From: Candidatus Thorarchaeota archaeon
GTDB lineage: Archaea; Asgardarchaeota; Heimdallarchaeia; Hodarchaeales; Hodarchaeaceae
DNA length: 32,000 nucleotides
Assembly (NCBI GenBank): GCA_048882505.1
Contig: JBHLRO010000017.1
Location: 30,001 to 62,000, forward strand
Direction: 5' to 3'
Each line of letters starts with the position of its first letter. Position 1 is the stretch's first letter. The notes below the pieces were generated by a model. It was not told the DNA's origin. It saw nothing but the letters and a program-made list of their open reading frames with translations, and did not search any database. The position numbers and the translations under genes were made by a program. Below, in pieces: positions 4,055-23,522 of this stretch.

Positions 4055-5542
4055 CTATTTCATTTTATTAGCTAATGTAATTTCCTCTGCAATTAACTTA
4101 CTTAATTTGCTGACCCGATCTTCCAAACGAGGGAGAAGGTCGGTATCTACTATACCAGCCTGTTTTTCATATGTTTTTAAATACTCTAAAGTTGTCTCGA
4201 CATCTTTTTTCAAGGCAGCGCAATCTTTAGCATAGTGAGATAGATCTTTTTTACTTATGGTCTTGTAATTCTCCAGGAAGTGATCTATCAATTCAAGGTT
4301 TTTTGATAAGTCGTCCTTTGATCGAAATATTAAATCACGACTATAAGGCAAGGGATTTTCTCTTTTCACCTTTTGATAGTTTCTTATCTGACCCGCCAGT
4401 TTTATAGCTTCCAAATCAAAATCTAGCATCGTCTGTTTTTGAAGGTCGGGCTCCAAAGGGAGAGATTTCGCATATTCCTCACAAATTTCCCATGCAAATT
4501 TTATTTTGGTTACATCGTTTAACTGATCCCATCTTCCTTCTTGTAAAGAGTTACGAACTTCTTGAAGGTGACTGTTGATATCACTAGCATGTGGATAGTA
4601 TACGGATTTTTCGCTCGCCTTGAGAAATAATGAAGAGATAGTCATAAATAAAGGATTATTGAGTATAGGTTCTCTTGCTGCTTCATATCTTGTTCCAAGT
4701 TCATTCATCTCACTTATTTGGGATTTTATTCTTTCCAGCATTAATAGTTTGGATTTCCTTTGATGCCTCATTAAACTTATTTCGCCTGGTTTCTGGAGTG
4801 GTTTTACGTTTTCTAGATCTATTTCTCTAAATTCTCCTTCCTCTGTAAAATACGAGCTAATTATCTTCTTAATTGTGTCTTGTTTCTCTTTAATGAGGCT
4901 TAAATCCAGCCTCTTATAGCGAATTCTTTTGATCACAGATCCAACAATCATCAAAAAACTGGTAGCAACAATTAACAGACCAATTGCGAAAAGCACACCA
5001 GCCAAATCAAATCCTGTACGGATTTTTCTGTAGTTTGCAGCCAAATTGATGGTTTCATTATACACTATTGTGCTTTCATTCAACCAATAGGAATCCATGA
5101 CCATATAAGCTGTAAAATTACCATATTTAGGCGCTATTAGTTCAATTTCCTCCATATAGGTATCTATTGACTCACCAAGGTGTATATCTAGTCCTTCTTC
5201 ATTGGAAAAAACCGTCTCATTATCTTGAATTATTCCATAAGCCGATATAAGAATGCGTATGTTATAATCATCATTGTTAGATGTAACATTAATAATTCCC
5301 CGAATAGTTTCTGTCTCCATTGAAACCATGCCTGGTTCAGGTGTAAAGAATATAAAAATAAAGTCTCCTGAATATTCGATCTCCTTATACGATAACCAAT
5401 GATCGTTTCCATCTACAGAATTGAAGCTTCCAAACAAAATGACTGAAATTAATACCAAAGCCAGACATTCTGACCCTCGTACAGTAATAAAATGCATTAT
5501 TTCCTTTGCCCTTCTCGTAATACCAACTGGAGGAATTCTCAA
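4055..5542 (-). CDS. single-pass membrane protein with extracellular N-terminal domain and helical cytoplasmic domain
   Basis: N-terminal hydrophobic signal (LALVLISVILFGSF), acidic beta-rich region with NxS/T sequons, TM helix (LAGVLFAIGLLIVATSFLMIVGSVI), basic stop-transfer KRIRYKR, then about 290 aa of charged helical sequence. True start is probably downstream (MHFITV...). Confidence 0.75.
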   Translation of the reverse strand: MRIPPVGITRRAKEIMHFITVRGSECLALVLISVILFGSFNSVDGNDHWLSYKEIEYSGDFIFIFFTPEPGMVSMETETIRGIINVTSNNDDYNIRILISAYGIIQDNETVFSNEEGLDIHLGESIDTYMEEIELIAPKYGNFTAYMVMDSYWLNESTIVYNETINLAANYRKIRTGFDLAGVLFAIGLLIVATSFLMIVGSVIKRIRYKRLDLSLIKEKQDTIKKIISSYFTEEGEFREIDLENVKPLQKPGEISLMRHQRKSKLLMLERIKSQISEMNELGTRYEAAREPILNNPLFMTISSLFLKASEKSVYYPHASDINSHLQEVRNSLQEGRWDQLNDVTKIKFAWEICEEYAKSLPLEPDLQKQTMLDFDLEAIKLAGQIRNYQKVKRENPLPYSRDLIFRSKDDLSKNLELIDHFLENYKTISKKDLSHYAKDCAALKKDVETTLEYLKTYEKQAGIVDTDLLPRLEDRVSKLSKLIAEEITLANKMK

Positions 5543-13546: not shown

Positions 13547-14110
13547 ATGAGTAGCGCGATAACTGCAGATATCCAATTCTTACTCCTATTAGCTGTAATC
13601 ATTGGAGGAGCTCTTTTCCTCACGGTCGTAGGTATATTTTTCTACATGATTACAAGGTTTAAAGAGTCTAATCCAGGACCACGACAGAAGATTGAGAAGG
13701 AGCATCGATTAGAACTTCTTTGGACTTTTGCTGCGATTATTTTGGTTGTGTTTGCATTTGTTGTCACGTTACCCACCGTTACAAAAATCGTTACTATGCC
13801 GCAGGAAGATTCTGAAATGATATGGGTCACTGGATTAAGGTTCCAGTGGCAGTTTAGGGAGGAAGCAGGAAATACTTCCGTGGGAGTTTTAAGTTTGGAT
13901 GTTGGCCAGCTATATGTCCTGAATGTGACTTCCGTTGACGTCGTGCATAGTTTCTTTGTTTATGACCTCTCATTCAAGATCGACGCCATACCTGGAGTGT
14001 TTAATCTTTTTTGGTTAAAGATTGAGACCCCAGGAACATATCGAGTACAATGCGCAGAAATGTGTGGGGACTCTCACTTTAATATGCTCGCAACTATAGT
14101 TGCCAGCTAG
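13547..14110 (+). CDS. coxB: heme-copper oxidase subunit II with CuA site, no fused cytochrome c
   Basis: Two TM helices, G.RFQW.F, DVVHSF, KIDAIPG, CuA motif CAEMCGDSHFNM. Confidence 0.95.
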   Translation: MSSAITADIQFLLLLAVIIGGALFLTVVGIFFYMITRFKESNPGPRQKIEKEHRLELLWTFAAIILVVFAFVVTLPTVTKIVTMPQEDSEMIWVTGLRFQWQFREEAGNTSVGVLSLDVGQLYVLNVTSVDVVHSFFVYDLSFKIDAIPGVFNLFWLKIETPGTYRVQCAEMCGDSHFNMLATIVAS

Positions 14111-14130
14111 ATTATCAGGGGATAACAGAA

Positions 14131-15684
14131 ATGACACTGCTTACTGAAACTACTAGTAATAGATCTACAGTCAACCAGATATTGGCAATTATTGGCACCA
14201 CAAATCATAAAACAATTGGATTATTATACTTGGTTTTTTCAATTCTCAATTTTTTGATTGCAGGATTATTCGCTCTCTTAATTCGAATCGAGTTGTTCTT
14301 ACCGGGACCAACGATCGTTTCTTCGAGTACGTATGCTGAACTATTCTCGCTTCATGGTACAGCAATGATCTTCCTCGTGGCAATGCCTATGGCTGCTGGA
14401 TTCGCAAATTATTACATACCTACCTTAATAGGTGCCAAGGATTTGTACTGGCCCAGGTGGAACAATGCGGCTTTCTTCTTACTGATTCCTGCTGGATTAT
14501 TCATTTATCTTTCATTTCTCGATGTGGGATGGACTGCCTACCCTCCATTATCTACTATCTATACCAGCTCCGCTGTAGAACTGTGGGTAGCAGGGATCAT
14601 TCTGATTGGTGTTTCCTCAATGGCCGGAGGATTAAACTTTGTTCTTACGATCTTAACCATGAGAAAACCTGGGCTTGGCTGGCGAAGTTTAGATCTCTTC
14701 ACTTGGTCAATTTTTATTACTGCAATAATACAGATTATTGCAAATCCAATATTGACAACGGGAGTGGTTCTACTTGAATTAGATCGGTTAATAATTGCCA
14801 ATACTGCAAGTACGCAAGGGATATTCTTCGCTTCCGTGAGTGGAAGTTCACCGGTTCTATGGCAGCATATATTTTGGGCGTATAGCCACCCGGCGGTCTA
14901 TATTATGGTTCTTCCTGCCATGGGAATCACCTCTTATCTTATTTCAATGTTTGCTCATGATGGAGACCCAAAACATGTTTTTGGTTATACTTCTATGGTT
15001 ATCGCATTGGGCGTGATTGCTTTCCTGGGGACGTTTGTTTGGGGACATCATCTCTTCACGGTCGGCCTGGGCAGTCAAGTAAACATTTTCTTCATGGCAG
15101 GAACTTTCATTATCGCGGTTCCTAGTGGAATTAAAACTTTCAATTGGTTGTTCACTCTTTATGGTGGCAGAATTAAATTCGAAACTCCTATGCTTTTTGC
15201 ACTAGGATTTTTATTTGGTTTTACGCTAGGAGGAATAACGGGCGTCTTTCTTAACGTAGTTCCTCTAGACTTAATTCTTCATGACACCGTCTTTGTTGTT
15301 GGCCACTTTCACTTAATTGCAATAGGGGGAATTGTCTCTACATTCTTCGGGATACTCTATTATCTTTACCCAGAAGCGACGGGAAAAATGTATAACAAAA
15401 AGTGGGCAAATCTCCATTTCTGGTTCTGGACAGTAGGTTCTATGATGACATTCGGTGCTATTGAAATGGCAGGGCTAAATGGATTCCCTCGGCGCTATTT
15501 TGATTATAGGCCCGATGCGTTTTGGATCATGATTTGGAACCAAATTGCCACAATTGGAGCAATCTTAATGGCAATTGGCGTACTAATAATGGCTATCAAC
15601 CTAATACAGAGCTACTTGAAAGGCGAACTAGCGGGCAAGAATCCATTTAATTTTGGATATCAAACCGATCGAAACACAGCATAG
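14131..15684 (+). CDS. coxA: heme-copper oxidase subunit I, type A2
   Basis: All six His ligands present (LHGT, YSHPAVY, WGHH, GHFH). D-channel GAKDLYWPRWNN, K-channel VPSGIK, PRRY. YSHPxVY replaces GHPEVY. Confidence 0.97.
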   Translation: MTLLTETTSNRSTVNQILAIIGTTNHKTIGLLYLVFSILNFLIAGLFALLIRIELFLPGPTIVSSSTYAELFSLHGTAMIFLVAMPMAAGFANYYIPTLIGAKDLYWPRWNNAAFFLLIPAGLFIYLSFLDVGWTAYPPLSTIYTSSAVELWVAGIILIGVSSMAGGLNFVLTILTMRKPGLGWRSLDLFTWSIFITAIIQIIANPILTTGVVLLELDRLIIANTASTQGIFFASVSGSSPVLWQHIFWAYSHPAVYIMVLPAMGITSYLISMFAHDGDPKHVFGYTSMVIALGVIAFLGTFVWGHHLFTVGLGSQVNIFFMAGTFIIAVPSGIKTFNWLFTLYGGRIKFETPMLFALGFLFGFTLGGITGVFLNVVPLDLILHDTVFVVGHFHLIAIGGIVSTFFGILYYLYPEATGKMYNKKWANLHFWFWTVGSMMTFGAIEMAGLNGFPRRYFDYRPDAFWIMIWNQIATIGAILMAIGVLIMAINLIQSYLKGELAGKNPFNFGYQTDRNTA

Positions 15685-15699
15685 GCAGGTGGACGTTTT

Positions 15700-16533
15700 A
15701 TGGCAAATACAAACGAAACGATCGTGACTCACAAAACTTCCCTTTGGCCCCCGTTCTTGGCTATAACAGCGGGATCTCTGGGAATTGCGCTAACATTTCT
15801 CTCCTCTGGCCAATTCATGTTAGGTATTGCCATTTTATTCAGTTATCTTATTCTTTTGATTTTATTTATAGTTCAAGAAACATCAACCCAGAAAGTAAAA
15901 GCTGAAGAAGAACGACCGTATCCACGTCATTTCTTCATGTGGATTTTTCTTGCATCAGAAGTGCTTTTCTTTGGTTTACTTATCGGAGTCTCCTTTATCA
16001 TCAGGCTACGCTCAACAGCCTGGGCAGATTTGGCGCAGTTGCTGATTGAATTGTTTGGATTCAACTTCCAAAAGAGTGGAAGAATCCCTCCCGTGTGGCC
16101 GAATGCGTCTGATGTTTTGAATATCCCATTAACTGCCGTAAACACGTTCATTCTGATATTATCTTCAGTCACTATGGTCAAGGCGGTTGAATCGATAGAA
16201 AAGGATTACAAGCAGGGGCTTCGGAATTTCTTATTCTTCACCGCGATTCTGGGAGCGGTTTTTCTAGTTATTCAACTGTTCGAGTACTATAATCTATTCA
16301 CTAGCGGCTTTACTCCCGATTCAAATCTTTTTGGAGCCACCTTTTATTTGCAAACTGGCTTTCATGGTGCCCATGTCTTCTTGGGCATTATTATGGTGTT
16401 TTTCATTGCATTAAAAGCTCATAAGGGAGGTTATTCGAAATTGAATTATTCGGGAGTCGAAGCGGTAGGGCTCTATTGGCATTTCGTGGACTTGGTATGG
16501 ATAATGCTCTTCACCATTATTTACCTAATCTAG
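15700..16533 (+). CDS. coxC: heme-copper oxidase subunit III
   Basis: H..SLWP N-terminus, MWIFLASEVLFF, NTFILILSS, FYLQTGFHGAHV, LYWHFVDLVW. Confidence 0.95.
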   Translation: MANTNETIVTHKTSLWPPFLAITAGSLGIALTFLSSGQFMLGIAILFSYLILLILFIVQETSTQKVKAEEERPYPRHFFMWIFLASEVLFFGLLIGVSFIIRLRSTAWADLAQLLIELFGFNFQKSGRIPPVWPNASDVLNIPLTAVNTFILILSSVTMVKAVESIEKDYKQGLRNFLFFTAILGAVFLVIQLFEYYNLFTSGFTPDSNLFGATFYLQTGFHGAHVFLGIIMVFFIALKAHKGGYSKLNYSGVEAVGLYWHFVDLVWIMLFTIIYLI

Positions 16534-16539
16534 GAGGAA

Positions 16540-16833
16540 ATGAAAACAATGAATACTGATACTAGAGAGAAAAACCGACCAACTAATGAAGTTTTTATTG
16601 CCCTAGCAGTGTTAACATTACTAGAATTTCTTATCAGCTATCTAGACCAAATCTTGGGTCAAAATCTGATTCTTCCCTCACTTTTAGGGATAGCAATTGT
16701 GAAAGCGGGTCTTGTGGCGGCTTTTTTCATGGGGATTCTTTACGAAAAGAATCGAAGGGATATCGTTCTGATTGTATTTATTTTTCCAGCAGTTATAGCA
16801 CTTATAATCGCAGTCATCCCTTTATTTGGTTAA
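16540..16833 (+). CDS. coxD: heme-copper oxidase subunit IV (prokaryotic COX4/CtaF-like)
   Basis: 97 aa, three TM, LAVLTLLEF...AIVKAGLVAAFFM. GGAGG RBS at 16533-16537; last gene of the operon. Confidence 0.8.
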   Translation: MKTMNTDTREKNRPTNEVFIALAVLTLLEFLISYLDQILGQNLILPSLLGIAIVKAGLVAAFFMGILYEKNRRDIVLIVFIFPAVIALIIAVIPLFG

Positions 16834-17598: not shown

Positions 17599-18606
17599 GT
17601 GGTTTTTATGCGAAATGAGACTTTCGAGCGTTATCTAAGAGAGAAAAACCTAGACCAGGAAAAAATCGATGACTCAATAGCCATAGTTACGGAATTTCGG
17701 AAATATCTCATGATTTCCAAGGAATATCAAGATAATATCACTTATGACGCCTTACACGACTTTTCAGCATATCTAATAGAGACTGGTAAAAATTCGTACG
17801 ACAATTATGTATCGCTCCTTCGCTATGGATATTTCATAGATAATAAAGAATTAATCATTGCCTCAATGGAATTACTTGACGGAAGTGAGATGATTGAGAA
17901 CTTTTCCAAGAGACTTATAGATGAATACGGAGTAAATGTACGAAACGAAATCTTCGAGGGTATGGAAGTCCCGCCTCTAGGATTACATCCAAAAAAGAAA
18001 CCACCAATTACTAAAACACTTGTCAAACGGTTTATTGAAAAATATGGGGAGGAGGAGGGTGGCGGTTTTTTCGCAAAAGGCTTAAGAAACAAGTACACGG
18101 AATCATACAAAAAACCAAGGGAAATGTTTCAAGAGAATGAAGACATTGACGAGTTTCTCCATAAAAAACGTAAAAAGTTCATTGATACCTTAGAGTCTCA
18201 TCGCAAAGAAAAATCATTGTTCTTCACTCAGGAGATAAATTCCTCAGTGCTTAATTATGTCCAGAATGACCCAACGATTGAATCAGGTACTCGTGAAGGG
18301 GATATTGTGGTTATCACAAAGATACCTTATATGACTATCCCGTTTCTAAATTCAACCGAGGAGCGACACAAGCGATACTTCTTCTGTCATAATCCATGGA
18401 TAAGAGAAGCCCTTTTAGAGGCGGATCAGCCAATTTCTCCGGCATTTTGCAATTGTAGCGGAGGTTATTATAAGAACTATTGGGAAGCCGTGCTTGACCA
18501 TTATCCTCTTAAGGTGGATCTGTTGGAATCGGTAATAAAAGGCGACAAAGTTTGTCGTTTTGCCTTGCACCTTCCCAAAGAAATCCTTGATAAAACTAGA
18601 GAATAA
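17599..18606 (+). CDS. DUF6144/V4R-like Cys-motif protein with a helical N-terminal domain resembling an integrase core-binding (SAM-like) domain
   Basis: C-terminal YFFCHNPW...FCNCSGGYY..YWEAV...V.LLESV.KGD.VCRF. N-terminal FERYL.EKNL....I.....EF.KYL...IT...L.DF..YL pattern. Confidence 0.6.
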   Translation: MVFMRNETFERYLREKNLDQEKIDDSIAIVTEFRKYLMISKEYQDNITYDALHDFSAYLIETGKNSYDNYVSLLRYGYFIDNKELIIASMELLDGSEMIENFSKRLIDEYGVNVRNEIFEGMEVPPLGLHPKKKPPITKTLVKRFIEKYGEEEGGGFFAKGLRNKYTESYKKPREMFQENEDIDEFLHKKRKKFIDTLESHRKEKSLFFTQEINSSVLNYVQNDPTIESGTREGDIVVITKIPYMTIPFLNSTEERHKRYFFCHNPWIREALLEADQPISPAFCNCSGGYYKNYWEAVLDHYPLKVDLLESVIKGDKVCRFALHLPKEILDKTRE

Positions 18607-18740
18607 TTCTAGTTTTATTCCCATATTGTCTATAACCGAACTCACGATCAAACATTGTTTTATTCAACCAAGCCAGTTGAAACCAGACATAATTATCTCG
18701 AAGTATCGAACTCAAGGCGGCATTTTTTTTCCATTTTTCA

Positions 18741-18757
18741 GGAAAAAATATAAAAAA
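18741..18757 (+). promoter_or_regulatory. putative BRE+TATA promoter of the 18799 gene
   Basis: GGAAAAAATATAAAAAA, TATA about 50 nt before the TTG start; the paralog has a similar element. Confidence 0.45.
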
Positions 18758-18798
18758 GTCCTTTTTTTCACCGCCGAAAGAAACTGGGTTGGATTTAT

Positions 18799-19701
18799 TT
18801 GAAGAAATCAAAAGTAATAAAGAGTATCTGCTATGCATTTCTGTTCATAATGTTCCTTGGTCAGGGCATTGTGCATCCATTGAGAGCCACGCATTACACC
18901 GTTGTAATAAAGGGCCACAAGTCCGATTTAACTGATCTTGTTCTAGATGGAAAGGGGGATGAATGGGTAGAGGTTCCAGGGGCATCATTATCGCTTATAT
19001 CACTCGATTTGCTCCGAACCGTTGAGGTTGAGATTCGAGTTATGTTTAATTCTTCTCATATTGCCTTATTATACACTGTACATGATGATTATGACTTTAA
19101 CAGCTCGGATCCCCACATGTCGGGCCATGTTGCCGTTTTGTGGGCTCAAGACAGAAACACGGGGATCCATATGGGCCTTGATGACCAAGGTCAAGCGACG
19201 ACCAAGGTAGATATCTGGCATTGGGAACTGGAGACAGCACCAGGCACTATCGTAGGTGGCAAGGGGACTGCCACCAGTGGGGACGATCCTGTCGGTAATT
19301 TTGACGACGAATGGGCGACTTCTCCAGTTAACAGACATGATGACACTTCTGAAAATTCACTAATGGGCGCATGGAACCACACGGGTTTTCATAATGGAAT
19401 CAACGCATCTGGCAACTATGTTTTTGAAATGACCAGACCATTGACCACTACTGAAGAGGATTTTGATATTCAAATGAAGGAGGGGAATATCTATATAATG
19501 GCCCTTGCTTATTGGGATCCTGACCAAACCCCCACAGGTTGGCAAGATAGTGGTCATATGATTTCAGCCGATTCGGCTGGGTGGCTCGAAGTACATCTCG
19601 GCGATACTGGATCAGCACCTGGTTTTGAAATAGTACTAACGCTGTTAGGCGTCACAATAATTGTAATTTCTCAAAAGAAGAAATTTCTAAAACGTAGATA
19701 G
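18799..19701 (+). CDS. surface-anchored DOMON-like / ethylbenzene dehydrogenase gamma-related putative heme-binding protein, PGF-CTERM-like (paralog A)
   Basis: Signal peptide, LDG..DEW, DIWHWE, YVFEMTRPL.T, ALAYWD, conserved HMG and GH candidate ligands. C-terminus APGF + TM + KKKFLKRR. Confidence 0.7.
   Translation: MKKSKVIKSICYAFLFIMFLGQGIVHPLRATHYTVVIKGHKSDLTDLVLDGKGDEWVEVPGASLSLISLDLLRTVEVEIRVMFNSSHIALLYTVHDDYDFNSSDPHMSGHVAVLWAQDRNTGIHMGLDDQGQATTKVDIWHWELETAPGTIVGGKGTATSGDDPVGNFDDEWATSPVNRHDDTSENSLMGAWNHTGFHNGINASGNYVFEMTRPLTTTEEDFDIQMKEGNIYIMALAYWDPDQTPTGWQDSGHMISADSAGWLEVHLGDTGSAPGFEIVLTLLGVTIIVISQKKKFLKRR
19207..19316 (+). repeat. 110-bp inverted repeat, copy 1 (inside paralog A)
   Basis: Aligned by hand with the reverse complement of 22069-22178: 108/110 identical, both mismatches synonymous Gly third positions. 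Confidence 0.95.
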
Positions 19702-19892
19702 TATTTTAGACGATAACCAGGTAATGCCGTTGGTTTACAAATGCATAAATGGCCTGTAGAACTGTGAAAAGATGTCGGGGCGTTTGATTTGGAGCAAATG
19801 AAGCTGCTCCAGATCTTGGCCGGAAGGAGGGAGACAAATGGACCTGAGGGGCCAGTTATAATCCAAAATTTCAGATTATTTTGAAAGAATAA

Positions 19893-21590
19893 TCAATCAG
19901 AGCGATTCAAACTTGGATTAATAGCGGCCTCATCGTTTAAAGGGTTGTCCAAGTGTCGTTGCTTCTTATATTTCGCCCTAATAGCTGGAATGATCACCAT
20001 CGAAGAAACCGCGATGGATCCTAAAACAGATAGAAGGAGATCCTCAGGTTGAAGATATTCTTCGGATCCTATTCCTTCGCAACTTATAAGGTCTGGAAAC
20101 AAGGGAGTAGCGTTTATTTGGTAGTTGGCGTTAAGGAGGAACAAGGCAATCCCAGCGCTGCCATCATAATATGACAGGTGATGTCCATATTGACTTAGGG
20201 ATGTAGTTAATCGTGGTTTCCCTGTTGCTACCGGAAATCTGTTATGGTTAGTTTTCTGCGTTTCAAGCCAGTTTGCAGCTCCTAGAAGCATATTTTTGAA
20301 TTGTGGGCAGCCAAATGTCTCATACATTTCGCCAAAAAAGGCTCCAATTCCAGCAGCTCCGTAACTATACCCAGTCATATAAACCTCACTATCCTCTCCA
20401 GTAATAGCTTTTGGCCATTTAAAGCCAGCATCAGTGCTGATTGCTGACCTCAATAACCAATCCGCGGCATCAATTGCGCCATTAGCATATCTGAGGTCCA
20501 TTGACTTTTTATACAACTCCAAAAAAAATTTTCCAACACCAGCGGCTCCAGCATCTATACCTGTAATTATATCAGTACTATCGATCCCTGTAGAATAGAC
20601 CACTCCTCCATTTGCCCAATTATCACCTTTTGTTTTTTCCAAAAGCCAATTTCCTATTCTTTTAGCATTAGTTAACCATCTTTCGTCGCCTGTGGAATCA
20701 TATAGGTTCAGGAAAAACGAGCCAATTCCGGCATTTCCACTTCCGAGACCCGTATAAAAATGGGAATCGTACGGGGACGAAGTCGACCACGGTAAAGCCA
20801 TTGTTCCCGGGTTTTCCTTCATGGCTATGCTTTCTAGCCACCGTGCTCCCGAAATCGCGATATTCTTCCATTCAGGTTCATTCAAAGCATGCCCGGCCTC
20901 CAAAAAAGCGCTAACAATCCCAACAGTTCCATAATTGAAGTCACTTACACCTATAATATCATTCATTCCGTACCCCCAATATTTTACTCCTCCATTGAGA
21001 CTTAGATTGGTGTTCGCTTGGTACTTTAAGGTTATCAAGGTTCTGTTTAGTAGTTCTGAGTACGTGGAATTCTTTGTATATTGATACAGATGTAAAAGAA
21101 GTGAGGCAATCCCCGCATTCCCGTATTTCTTTCCGATATAGCGATTTCTCGTTCCTTCTCCTGTAAACCAATAGATCCCACCGTTTTCATCTGCTCTTGC
21201 TCCTTTGATAATGAAGTTCGCGGCCTTCTCAGCGTATTCTAATAAGGTTTTATTTAGAGAAATGAGATAGAATGATAAAAGGACATCAGCAATGCCCGCT
21301 GTGCCCCAATGATATCCGTAAAAATATTGGTTCCAATCCTCATCCCAATCCCGAGGAGGAGGATCGATAATACGGGGCCACTTGGCCTGATCCCCTGTCT
21401 GAACCAAATCCCCTATCAAACCTTCGATGATTTCGAAGGCCATACTCCTCATCGATTCACCATTAGCTGTCTTTATCCCAGTTGTGTTTTCCTGATGCCC
21501 CCAAACACCGGAAACCGGTAGTCCTGGATATAAAAGCAGCACTAGCAGGACTAAAATCACGCCAAATTTTCTTTTTAACATATGAATCAA
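19893..21590 (-). CDS. exported, C-terminally membrane-anchored LanC-like (alpha/alpha)-toroid protein lacking Zn ligands
   Basis: Seven G/S/DxxxGxxG loop-helix repeats, signal peptide (likely ATG at 21581, MLKRKFGVILVLLVLLL), C-terminal TM followed by RAKYKKQR, several NxS/T sequons. Confidence 0.8.
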   Translation of the reverse strand: MIHMLKRKFGVILVLLVLLLYPGLPVSGVWGHQENTTGIKTANGESMRSMAFEIIEGLIGDLVQTGDQAKWPRIIDPPPRDWDEDWNQYFYGYHWGTAGIADVLLSFYLISLNKTLLEYAEKAANFIIKGARADENGGIYWFTGEGTRNRYIGKKYGNAGIASLLLHLYQYTKNSTYSELLNRTLITLKYQANTNLSLNGGVKYWGYGMNDIIGVSDFNYGTVGIVSAFLEAGHALNEPEWKNIAISGARWLESIAMKENPGTMALPWSTSSPYDSHFYTGLGSGNAGIGSFFLNLYDSTGDERWLTNAKRIGNWLLEKTKGDNWANGGVVYSTGIDSTDIITGIDAGAAGVGKFFLELYKKSMDLRYANGAIDAADWLLRSAISTDAGFKWPKAITGEDSEVYMTGYSYGAAGIGAFFGEMYETFGCPQFKNMLLGAANWLETQKTNHNRFPVATGKPRLTTSLSQYGHHLSYYDGSAGIALFLLNANYQINATPLFPDLISCEGIGSEEYLQPEDLLLSVLGSIAVSSMVIIPAIRAKYKKQRHLDNPLNDEAAINPSLNRSD

Positions 21591-21683
21591 GGGGCCGCAA
21601 CCAGTTAATTGACCATTCTCCCTATAAACAAATAAAATTAATATTGATTCTGTTGAGAAAAAAAAAGGGGGGAAATAGGAATT

Positions 21684-22622
21684 TTAGCCTTTTCTACCTT
21701 TTTTCCGGAAAAACCCTGTCCCAATTGTAACCGCAGTCAAACTAACTACCAATGCAATTACAGTAAAGCCAGGCGTTGATTGGCTTGCTGGTTCTCCCAA
21801 TTCGATATTTAGCCATCCAACAGTTTCCGCAGATACAAGGTGACCATCGTCTTCCCATCCTGTGGGGGTTTCATCGGGATCCCAATAGGCTACACCCATT
21901 TTGTAGACACTGTTCTCAGAGAACTGCGTATCATTGTCATCTGTGGTTTCTAAGGCTCTCTTCATTTCGAAAACATAATGGCCTCTCGAACCAGCGATAT
22001 CGGTATGGTTCCAATTGCCGAACAAGGAATTCTCCGCCGCATCATCATGCCTGTTTTCTGAACTCGTGGCCCATTCGTCGTCAAAATTGCCGACAGGATC
22101 GTCCCCACTGGTGGCAGTCCCCTTACCACCTACGATAGTGCCTGGTGCTGTCTCCAGTTCCCAATGCCAGATATCTACTTTTCCCTGACTGACACCTGCA
22201 TCGTCCATTCCCATGTGGGGTCCAGCTTCCTCATCTATTGCCCACATAACTGCTACGTGGCCCGATAAATGATGGTCCGAGCTGTTAAAAGCGTAATTAT
22301 CCTGTATTTCAACAAGAACGGCGATATTATCTGCATCGAATGCAACCCGCACATTTACATCAAGCTGCCTATCGTCGTTTGGAACCTCATCCCGTTCAAT
22401 CGGTACAATAGTAAACGAAAGTCCCCCTACTGCCGCCCAATCACTGGAATCTCCATCCAAGGCAATAGTTGTGAGATCCGTTTCGGTTGCTCGAAGCGTA
22501 AGGTGTGCACCATGCTCATGTTCACCGTTAGCCTGTACAAGTACAATAGTACTCACAAATCCTAACAAAAGCAGAGCAGTTAGCGATGCAATTCGCAAGG
22601 AATTTCCTATTTTAGTTTTCAT
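21684..22622 (-). CDS. surface-anchored DOMON-like / EbdC-related putative heme-binding protein, PGF-CTERM-like (paralog B)
   Basis: Same motifs as paralog A, including a 40-aa identical block (KVDIWHWE...DEWATS). His-rich HEHGAH after the signal peptide. C-terminus TPGF + TM + RKKGRK. Confidence 0.7.
   Translation of the reverse strand: MKTKIGNSLRIASLTALLLLGFVSTIVLVQANGEHEHGAHLTLRATETDLTTIALDGDSSDWAAVGGLSFTIVPIERDEVPNDDRQLDVNVRVAFDADNIAVLVEIQDNYAFNSSDHHLSGHVAVMWAIDEEAGPHMGMDDAGVSQGKVDIWHWELETAPGTIVGGKGTATSGDDPVGNFDDEWATSSENRHDDAAENSLFGNWNHTDIAGSRGHYVFEMKRALETTDDNDTQFSENSVYKMGVAYWDPDETPTGWEDDGHLVSAETVGWLNIELGEPASQSTPGFTVIALVVSLTAVTIGTGFFRKKGRKG
22069..22178 (-). repeat. 110-bp inverted repeat, copy 2 (inside paralog B)
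   Basis: Reverse complement matches 19207-19316 at 108/110 positions. Confidence 0.95.
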
Positions 22623-22676
22623 TGATTCATCACTCTAAAATTTTATGAGAATGTTTACGATGTACATTTTTCTAGT

Positions 22677-22691
22677 TATTTATATTTTTCC
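22677..22691 (-). promoter_or_regulatory. putative BRE+TATA promoter of the 22622 gene
   Basis: Minus strand reads GGAAAAATATAAATA, about 55-60 nt upstream of the ATG. Confidence 0.45.
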
Positions 22692-22841
22692 ATAAAAAAG
22701 CTGAAAAACCTGACAATGTAAACTTCGTTAAATCCTTTTTAGCGGCTAAATCTAGCTTAAAAGAAGTCCCAAAAGTAGTTTTGTATATGAAGGATCTCTA
22801 GTACCATAAAAAAACTCTAATGGATATTAAAACAAACTTTA

Positions 22842-23522
22842 TTAGGCTTCTGCCTTCATAACACGAAAAAGACAGTGGCTATCACCTTTACTAATACATT
22901 TGTCCTTTATAACCTTTCGATCCGTCAATTGACCATAGAAAACCTCATCTATTTTGCAGATCAATGGATTTAACTTCATAACCCCATACAAGACGCAATT
23001 GTGCGTTTTAATGTCATAAGAAGAATTTTCTTCTGTTATTTCGGGGTAAACCCCATATTCTTCCAAAATACCAACAAACTGCAGCAATTTCTGTTTTAAA
23101 GAATCTGGACGTCCAGTGTTTTGATTTTGACGCATTAGTTGAAGTTCTATGTCTTTTGCAATTCTCTCCCCTATGCGTTCTAGAAGCTCTATTGTTTTGT
23201 CCGTTCCATGGAGCTTTTCATGTTCATCCAAAATATAAATGCAGAAATCTTTGTATACCTTTGGGAATAATTCGATTCCTTTATCTACTAGGGTATATCG
23301 CATTGCTGGACGGCCAGATTGCCCTTTCATTTCAGAGCGCTGTATGTAGCCATCTTTTTCTAGGTTAACCAGGTAATTCCAAATAGTATTTGAGCTTAAT
23401 CCAACGGCGTTGGCTATCTGTTTAACAGTGGGTCCAGGCCCCGATCCATTAAGCAATAAGTATTGTAATATCTTTCCACGCGTTCCCTTGTTGGTTCCGT
23501 CTCCTACGAGTGACACAAACAT
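22842..23522 (-). CDS. winged-HTH transcriptional regulator, COG2345/SufR-like, with a Cys-containing C-terminal sensor domain
   Basis: TVKQIANAVGLSSNTIWNYLVNLEKDGYI...GRP..RY.L; C-terminal HNC-x12-C...C-x7-C.F. Confidence 0.85.
   Translation of the reverse strand: MFVSLVGDGTNKGTRGKILQYLLLNGSGPGPTVKQIANAVGLSSNTIWNYLVNLEKDGYIQRSEMKGQSGRPAMRYTLVDKGIELFPKVYKDFCIYILDEHEKLHGTDKTIELLERIGERIAKDIELQLMRQNQNTGRPDSLKQKLLQFVGILEEYGVYPEITEENSSYDIKTHNCVLYGVMKLNPLICKIDEVFYGQLTDRKVIKDKCISKGDSHCLFRVMKAEA

Follow-up and report, generated by a model that had tools for sequence, protein, structure and literature searches.

A near-identical 110-nt inverted repeat in two convergent EB_dh paralogs of a Heimdall-group Asgard archaeon as a probable gene-conversion island

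The window analysed here (the whole stretch of 32,000 nt from contig JBHLRO010000017.1 of assembly GCA_048882505.1) belongs to a Heimdall-group Asgard archaeon and contains two convergent open reading frames (ORFs), the EB_dh paralogs A and B, which carry within their coding sequences the two arms of a 110-nt near-perfect inverted repeat. In our assessment this repeat is very likely a gene-conversion island, that is, a short tract kept alike by concerted evolution through ectopic conversion between two old duplicates. The comparison with a sister species of the same genus suggests that this conversion has probably been recurrent, occurring in both lineages since their split. The genes of the module and the two copies of the tract are the following:

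18799..19701, plus strand: paralog A, 300 aa, with a signal peptide, an EB_dh / DOMON-like beta-sandwich and a Heimdall-CTERM-like sorting tail
19207..19316, plus strand: probable conversion tract, A copy, residues 137-173 (strand VDIWHW, loop, strand FDDEWA)
19893..21590, minus strand: LanC-like (alpha/alpha)-barrel protein, 565-aa ORF between A and B, with an N-terminal signal peptide and a C-terminal anchor
21684..22622, minus strand: paralog B, 312 aa, of the same architecture as A; the slower-evolving copy
22069..22178, minus strand: probable conversion tract, B copy, residues 149-185

The two copies of the tract (19207-19316 and the reverse complement of 22069-22178) are identical at 108/110 bases and each begins at codon position 1. 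The two mismatches (19260/22125 and 19296/22089) leave identical runs of 53, 35 and 20 nt, and a repeat search extends the pair to a 179-nt inverted repeat at 85% identity with 2,620 nt between its arms. In a self-comparison of the window's own genome (designated G000; a 4.3-Mb assembly with 94.5% completeness) this pair is the sole closely spaced intra-contig inverted repeat. Outside the tract the paralogs are far less alike: the flanks are ~54% identical, the amino-acid identity is 42% (109/257), and in the codon alignment identical degenerate codons make up 42/100 as compared with 31/34 inside. The proportion of synonymous differences (pS, Nei-Gojobori) between the G000 paralogs is 0.12 in the tract and 0.78, i.e. 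saturated, outside it. These values reproduce the identity, the in-frame position and the G+C content (61/110) reported for the repeat in a first-pass annotation of the window, and they bear out its statement that the flanking codons are diverged. In 20,000 column or codon shuffles no identical run attained the observed maximum, which is 53 nt for G000 and 88 nt for the sister species, designated G016 and deposited as Candidatus Heimdallarchaeota archaeon TM2S.58 (p < 5e-5).

Among 41 relatives, all GTDB representative genomes and Joint Genome Institute (JGI) metagenome contigs, the A / LanC-like / B arrangement occurs in G016 only; the other homologs are single copies or, in Chloroflexota, tandem arrays, with at most 45% identity. 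Along its whole length the 12-kb contig of G016 has the gene order of the window, with a DNA identity of 80-90%. A codon alignment of the four sequences (Aw and Bw from G000, A16 and B16 from G016) shows that the tract copies of G016 are likewise nearly the same (107/110), so that the differences within a genome number two (G000) and three (G016), as compared with 10-13 between the species (identity of 97-100/110). At nine sites of the tract, eight of them synonymous, G000 differs from G016 by a change that is common to both paralogs. The partition of informative sites is thus nine by species and none by paralog in the tract vs two by species and 258 by paralog outside (Fisher p = 3e-15), and parallel change does not account for the species-grouped sites (p = 4e-5, judged by how often such sites occur elsewhere in the genes).

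The pS values taken across the two genomes are equally telling. Between paralogs they amount to 0.12 in the tract and 0.75-0.78 outside, while between orthologs they are 0.36-0.44 in the tract and 0.41 (A) or 0.25 (B) outside. Since the pS of orthologs in the tract is as high as elsewhere in the genes, its synonymous sites are free to change between species and have been homogenised within each genome. A tract that groups by species, flanks that group by paralog and synonymous sites that are not frozen form together the pattern typical of paralogs that evolve in concert through gene conversion. Placing the last conversion before the species split is unlikely for either lineage (Poisson p 0.0002-0.01), and a model in which just one of the lineages underwent conversion fares poorly as well (binomial p = 0.009). 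Between G000 and G016 the tract borders agree within one codon. The recent sequence exchange that the first-pass annotation had postulated is therefore strongly supported and can be sharpened to a recurrent one, as the tract of G016 has been homogenised separately, with its nine species-specific shared sites.

Near-identity at synonymous sites could also result from a constraint on the nucleotide sequence itself, if both mRNAs depended on, for example, a binding site, an RNA element or some signal at the codon level. The tract would fit such a view in being G+C-richer than its surroundings (the G+C content of the window is 40.1%) and in having its synonymous sites alike within each genome. However, the nine sites mentioned above changed between the species at a flank-like rate, which argues that the bases are not constrained as such. 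Moreover, the fold energy of the tract is no better than that of shuffled sequences (z = -0.32), it has no Rfam family match, and only 2/33 pairs of the consensus fold are compensated. Overall, a nucleotide-level constraint appears extremely improbable. The G+C excess of the tract is mostly due to amino-acid composition. The G+C fraction at the first two codon positions (GC12) is 0.57 in the tract vs 0.45-0.50 outside, and at the third position (GC3) it is 0.50-0.56 vs 0.37-0.40, a borderline difference (p = 0.045 for A16 and 0.07-0.28 for the other three sequences). GC-biased conversion was also considered and was not adopted, the GC3 rise being suggestive only (p = 0.04-0.28).

Several points weigh against the interpretation of the tract as a recurrently converted island. 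Codon 179 (GGT/GGC) has a crossed pattern, which requires either homoplasy or patchy conversion. The pair was found in two species only, and the word "recurrent" rests on a single species comparison. The tract is short, its flanks are strongly diverged, and the seeding of the first event can be accounted for only if the island is what is left of a once longer identical region that has shrunk. Selection for an identical loop may also have helped in the upkeep of the island. Finally, both G000 and G016 are short-read metagenome assemblies.

The latter circumstance brings in the possibility that the two copies are truly more divergent and were made alike by the assembler or by a consensus (polishing) step. 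In fact, bubble removal at a smaller k-mer length (k) could erase a few true differences in such metagenome-assembled genomes (MAGs). Almost every contig end in G000 has exactly 77 nt in common with another contig, suggesting a de Bruijn assembly with k = 77; at this k no graph collapse is expected for the two copies, which have no 77-mer in common. The tract is also present in two MAGs that were deposited separately and belong to different GTDB species; in each of them the two copies have shared variants of their own. In addition, a Logan contig (run SRR20218960) agrees with the A copy at every base, the two A-specific ones among them. Besides, an artefact of this kind cannot raise an identity of ~54% to 98%. 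We attach next to no credence to it. As a separate observation on the same assembly, exact 77-nt direct repeats with 177-nt spacing occur at six places of G000 (C4:20016-20269, C9:123817-124070, C12:109846-110099, C20:64456-64709, C31:12391-12644 and C45:5084-5337). Together with the 77-nt overlaps they look like the footprint of the k = 77 de Bruijn assembly, possibly with small loop artefacts. Two further contigs, C73 and C74 (~3.57 kb each), are 95% identical over their full length and may represent either two variants of a strain or a recent duplication that the assembler left unresolved.

In a tree built with the tract columns removed, A and B still form sister clades (support 93/80) about 1.7 substitutions per site apart, which points to an old duplication within this Heimdall lineage. 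The Heimdall protein P0005 adjoins A/B, with A on a long branch and B on a short stem. The two EB_dh genes are the only ones in G000, and no third copy that might serve as a donor was found in G000 or G016. As for the recombination machinery, G000 encodes four strong Rad51/RadA-family loci (223-317 bits; C2:354335-355075, C15:48949-49689, C11:46840-47547 and C7:43807-44490) plus two weak ones.

The probable mechanism is the following. RadA-mediated strand invasion would allow a break or gap in one copy to be mended from the other, both copies being on the same chromosome. Heteroduplex would stay confined to the still near-identical stretch and end at the diverged flanks. This stretch may be anchored by the segments encoding VDIWHWE and NFDDEWA, where selection on the protein would keep the bases similar anyway. 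Each conversion would renew the identity that the next one requires, and in this way the island could last while the flanks become saturated. If the same intermediates were resolved by crossover, the intervening 2,752 bp would be inverted, as a possible by-product.

In the AlphaFold model of A (mean predicted local distance difference test score, pLDDT, of 82) the tract corresponds to strands E137-142 (VDIWHW) and E168-173 (FDDEWA) with a low-pLDDT loop of ~25 residues between them. In an alignment of 23 homologs the motifs VDIWHWE and NFDDEWA of the flanking strands are invariant or nearly so. The loop varies widely across these homologs, but A and B have the same one. A consequence of the conversion would thus be that a loop variable in the family is kept the same in both proteins.

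As its other reading, the first-pass annotation had named the repeat a candidate for an invertible, phase-variable cassette. In its full form this reading would have it that the tracts are crossover sites of a reversible inversion, homologous or mediated by a trans-acting recombinase, which takes place at appreciable frequency in the population, with the homogenisation of the tract being a side effect of the crossovers; it would yield the chimeras A(N)-B(C) and B(N)-A(C) and place the LanC-like gene behind A. The geometry given in the annotation is indeed exact. When the 2,752-bp inner segment is inverted in silico, both chimeras stay open and in frame (300 and 312 aa), and the LanC-like ORF comes to lie 93 nt downstream of the A-locus chimera. 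The singularity of the pair in the assembly speaks in the same direction, and so does the report that almost half of the selected conversions of Salmonella tufA/tufB were accompanied by inversion (PMC5485169, citing Hughes 2000). A further hint is the uneven length of the stem branches in the two halves of the proteins (window 18799-19206 vs 19317-19701 for A, and the corresponding halves of B). For the N halves they are 1.54 (A) vs 0.21 (B), a difference of about seven-fold, and for the C halves 0.49 vs 0.31 (1.6-fold). This asymmetry fits exchanged C halves but equally well ordinary regional differences in rate.

On the other hand, a single orientation was seen throughout, albeit in a very small sample (two species and one contig). 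The synteny and chimerism comparison with relatives that the first-pass annotation had called for showed G000 and G016 to be collinear across the locus. The Logan contig L026 (SRR20218960; 99.8% identical to window 18601-20104), which runs from upstream of A through the tract and A(C) to the 3' end of the LanC-like gene, has the same orientation on the A side. No chimeric protein was found among 5.8 billion clusters (searched as full-length proteins, cluster members and short fragments), and no further contigs came up when the sequences of B and the LanC-like protein were looked up as exact matches. In agreement with the first-pass annotation, no ORF of at least 100 aa in the window has a match to a recombinase family; the 12-kb contig of G016 carries only syntenic genes and likewise no recombinase. 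In the whole of G000 at its 94.5% completeness there is one tyrosine recombinase (a Phage_integrase match on contig C5) and no serine recombinase (Resolvase). The swap would also split a single beta-sandwich domain instead of exchanging independent ones, and the halves concerned are 45-58% identical.

The consequences for expression of the LanC-like gene depend on the following elements:

18725..18757, plus strand: promoter-like motif upstream of A, T-rich inverted half-sites followed by a TATA-like AAAATATAAA box
21658..21666, minus strand: T9 run directly after the B stop and ahead of the LanC-like gene, a candidate archaeal terminator
22676..22708, minus strand: promoter-like motif upstream of B, the counterpart of 18725-18757 (an inverted-repeat pair)

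The motif that A and B have in common consists of T-rich inverted half-sites and then GGAAAAATATAAA. It is kept between the paralogs and also between G000 and G016 (L011 ~4860-4900 and ~930-975), despite the saturated coding flanks, and is probably a common archaeal promoter plus operator. With such a shared element A and B would be co-regulated. Since the motifs are near-identical and the T9 run lies between B and the LanC-like gene, relocation of this gene behind A would change little, which weakens the promoter switch suggested in the first-pass annotation. A weaker third copy of the motif is found at 18154-18176.

Overall, the view of the locus as an invertible cassette is unsupported, with one orientation in G000, G016 and L026, no chimeras and no local recombinase, and we consider a reversible inversion at appreciable frequency unlikely. 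Occasional inversions as a by-product of the gene conversion favoured here are plausible by analogy, because the conversions of the tuf genes often came with inversion. It is also improbable, in our opinion, that conversion crossovers are frequent enough to give both orientations in natural populations. If true, this would amount to a recombinase-independent, homology-driven switch in an Asgard archaeon, in which the N and C halves of a surface heme-type protein occur in four combinations and the LanC-like gene is re-sited. In a milder variant of this reading, the island would last because a partner common to both proteins requires the same loop on each.

Among known systems, the inverted duplicate EF-Tu genes tufA and tufB of Salmonella enterica evolve in concert by RecA-dependent gene conversion (PMC5485169; Hughes 2000, J Mol Biol 297:355, as cited there). 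In both cases inverted paralogs lie on one chromosome, non-reciprocal copying evens out their synonymous sites, and the intermediates can invert the intervening DNA. The tuf genes are ~99% identical along their whole length and are located far apart, whereas in the present case 110 of ~900 nt are homogenised between saturated flanks at a distance of 2.75 kb in an Asgard host, and the events are deduced from sequences, not observed experimentally. Taken as an analogy, tufA/tufB is the closest mechanistic model. Long-lasting conversion limited to one domain has been described in archaeal paralogs, mtrA-1 and mtrA-2 of methanogens (PMC4632066), and 26 long-lasting concertedly evolving prokaryotic genes are known (PMC6053082). 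The mtrA pair is similar in that archaeal paralogs at one locus are partly homogenised, with that part grouping by species and the rest by copy. In contrast, the tract described here is much shorter, comprises a strand-loop-strand element rather than a whole domain, and has been followed in two species of one genus.

Shufflons, hsdS systems and intragenic invertons represent another type, that of recombinase-driven invertible coding cassettes (PMC10028968). They share with the present locus the inverted repeats within coding sequence, exchange between which would give in-frame alternatives of surface-exposed proteins. In these systems, however, the repeats are short, the exchange is mediated by an enzyme and both orientations appear in reads. 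A neighbouring recombinase gene is often present. Here we have a 110-nt homologous tract seen in one orientation, no recombinase gene nearby and a swap that cuts a single domain, and the resemblance is in geometry only.

The case leaves the existing knowledge of gene conversion unchanged, the process being well known. It represents a clean and statistically strong instance of mosaic concerted evolution in Heimdall-group Asgard archaea, as shown by the species-specific changes common to both paralogs. It indicates that in this lineage ectopic homologous recombination acts on tracts down to a length of ~110 nt between otherwise saturated paralogs. For annotation and phylogeny, the tract segment of the EB_dh paralogs records the history of the genome and not the history of the gene copy.

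With respect to the gene products, B matches the Pfam family EB_dh (PF09459) with 50 bits, above the cut-off of 33.3, and A scores slightly below it (32 bits). A profile built from the 23 EB_dh homologs matches subunit C of nitrite oxidoreductase, NxrC (7b04_C, E = 3e-9). The best PDB folds for the model of A are the heme b subunits 2ivf_C (E = 4e-10) and 7b04_C, followed by CBM9 and DOMON-type sandwiches. Both the profile and the fold thus place these proteins with the EB_dh / DMSO-reductase type II gamma-subunit-like heme b domains. The matches to the Heimdall-CTERM sorting signal (NF045529) are below its cut-off of 24 bits, with 23.4 for A and 13.8 for B; the C-termini of both have a small-residue motif followed by a hydrophobic helix and a basic tail. 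Given the EB_dh and fold matches, the signal peptides and the tails resembling sorting signals, A and B are probably surface-anchored, putative heme-type beta-sandwich proteins. Elsewhere in the family, a Chloroflexota MAG (JABMNO010000058.1; L019 4812-8976) carries five EB_dh homologs head-to-tail, and L017 and L020 have two or three. The EB_dh family grows by tandem duplication in Chloroflexota.

The LanC-like ORF matches Pfam LANC_like with 80 bits, and all its NCBIfam matches to lanthionine-synthetase cyclase domains are far below the cut-offs. The true start of this gene is likely the ATG at 21581. Amino-acid identity to the G016 orthologs is only 72% for the LanC-like protein, as compared with 91% for A and 96% for B. 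It is a fast-evolving, predicted exported protein flanked by two slower ones.

The idea that the whole module had arisen as an inverted duplication was examined on the regulator-like genes that flank it (17599-18606 and 22842-23522). BLASTP between them gave nothing below E = 1, and without detectable similarity of the flanking genes the duplicates comprise the EB_dh genes only. The product of the left gene has only a weak DUF6144 match. The right one encodes a winged-helix protein whose C-terminal part is like SufR or MetOD1. A complete heme-copper oxidase operon (COX2, COX1, COX3, COX4_pro; 13547-16833), which is syntenic in G016, is located ~2 kb upstream of the module.

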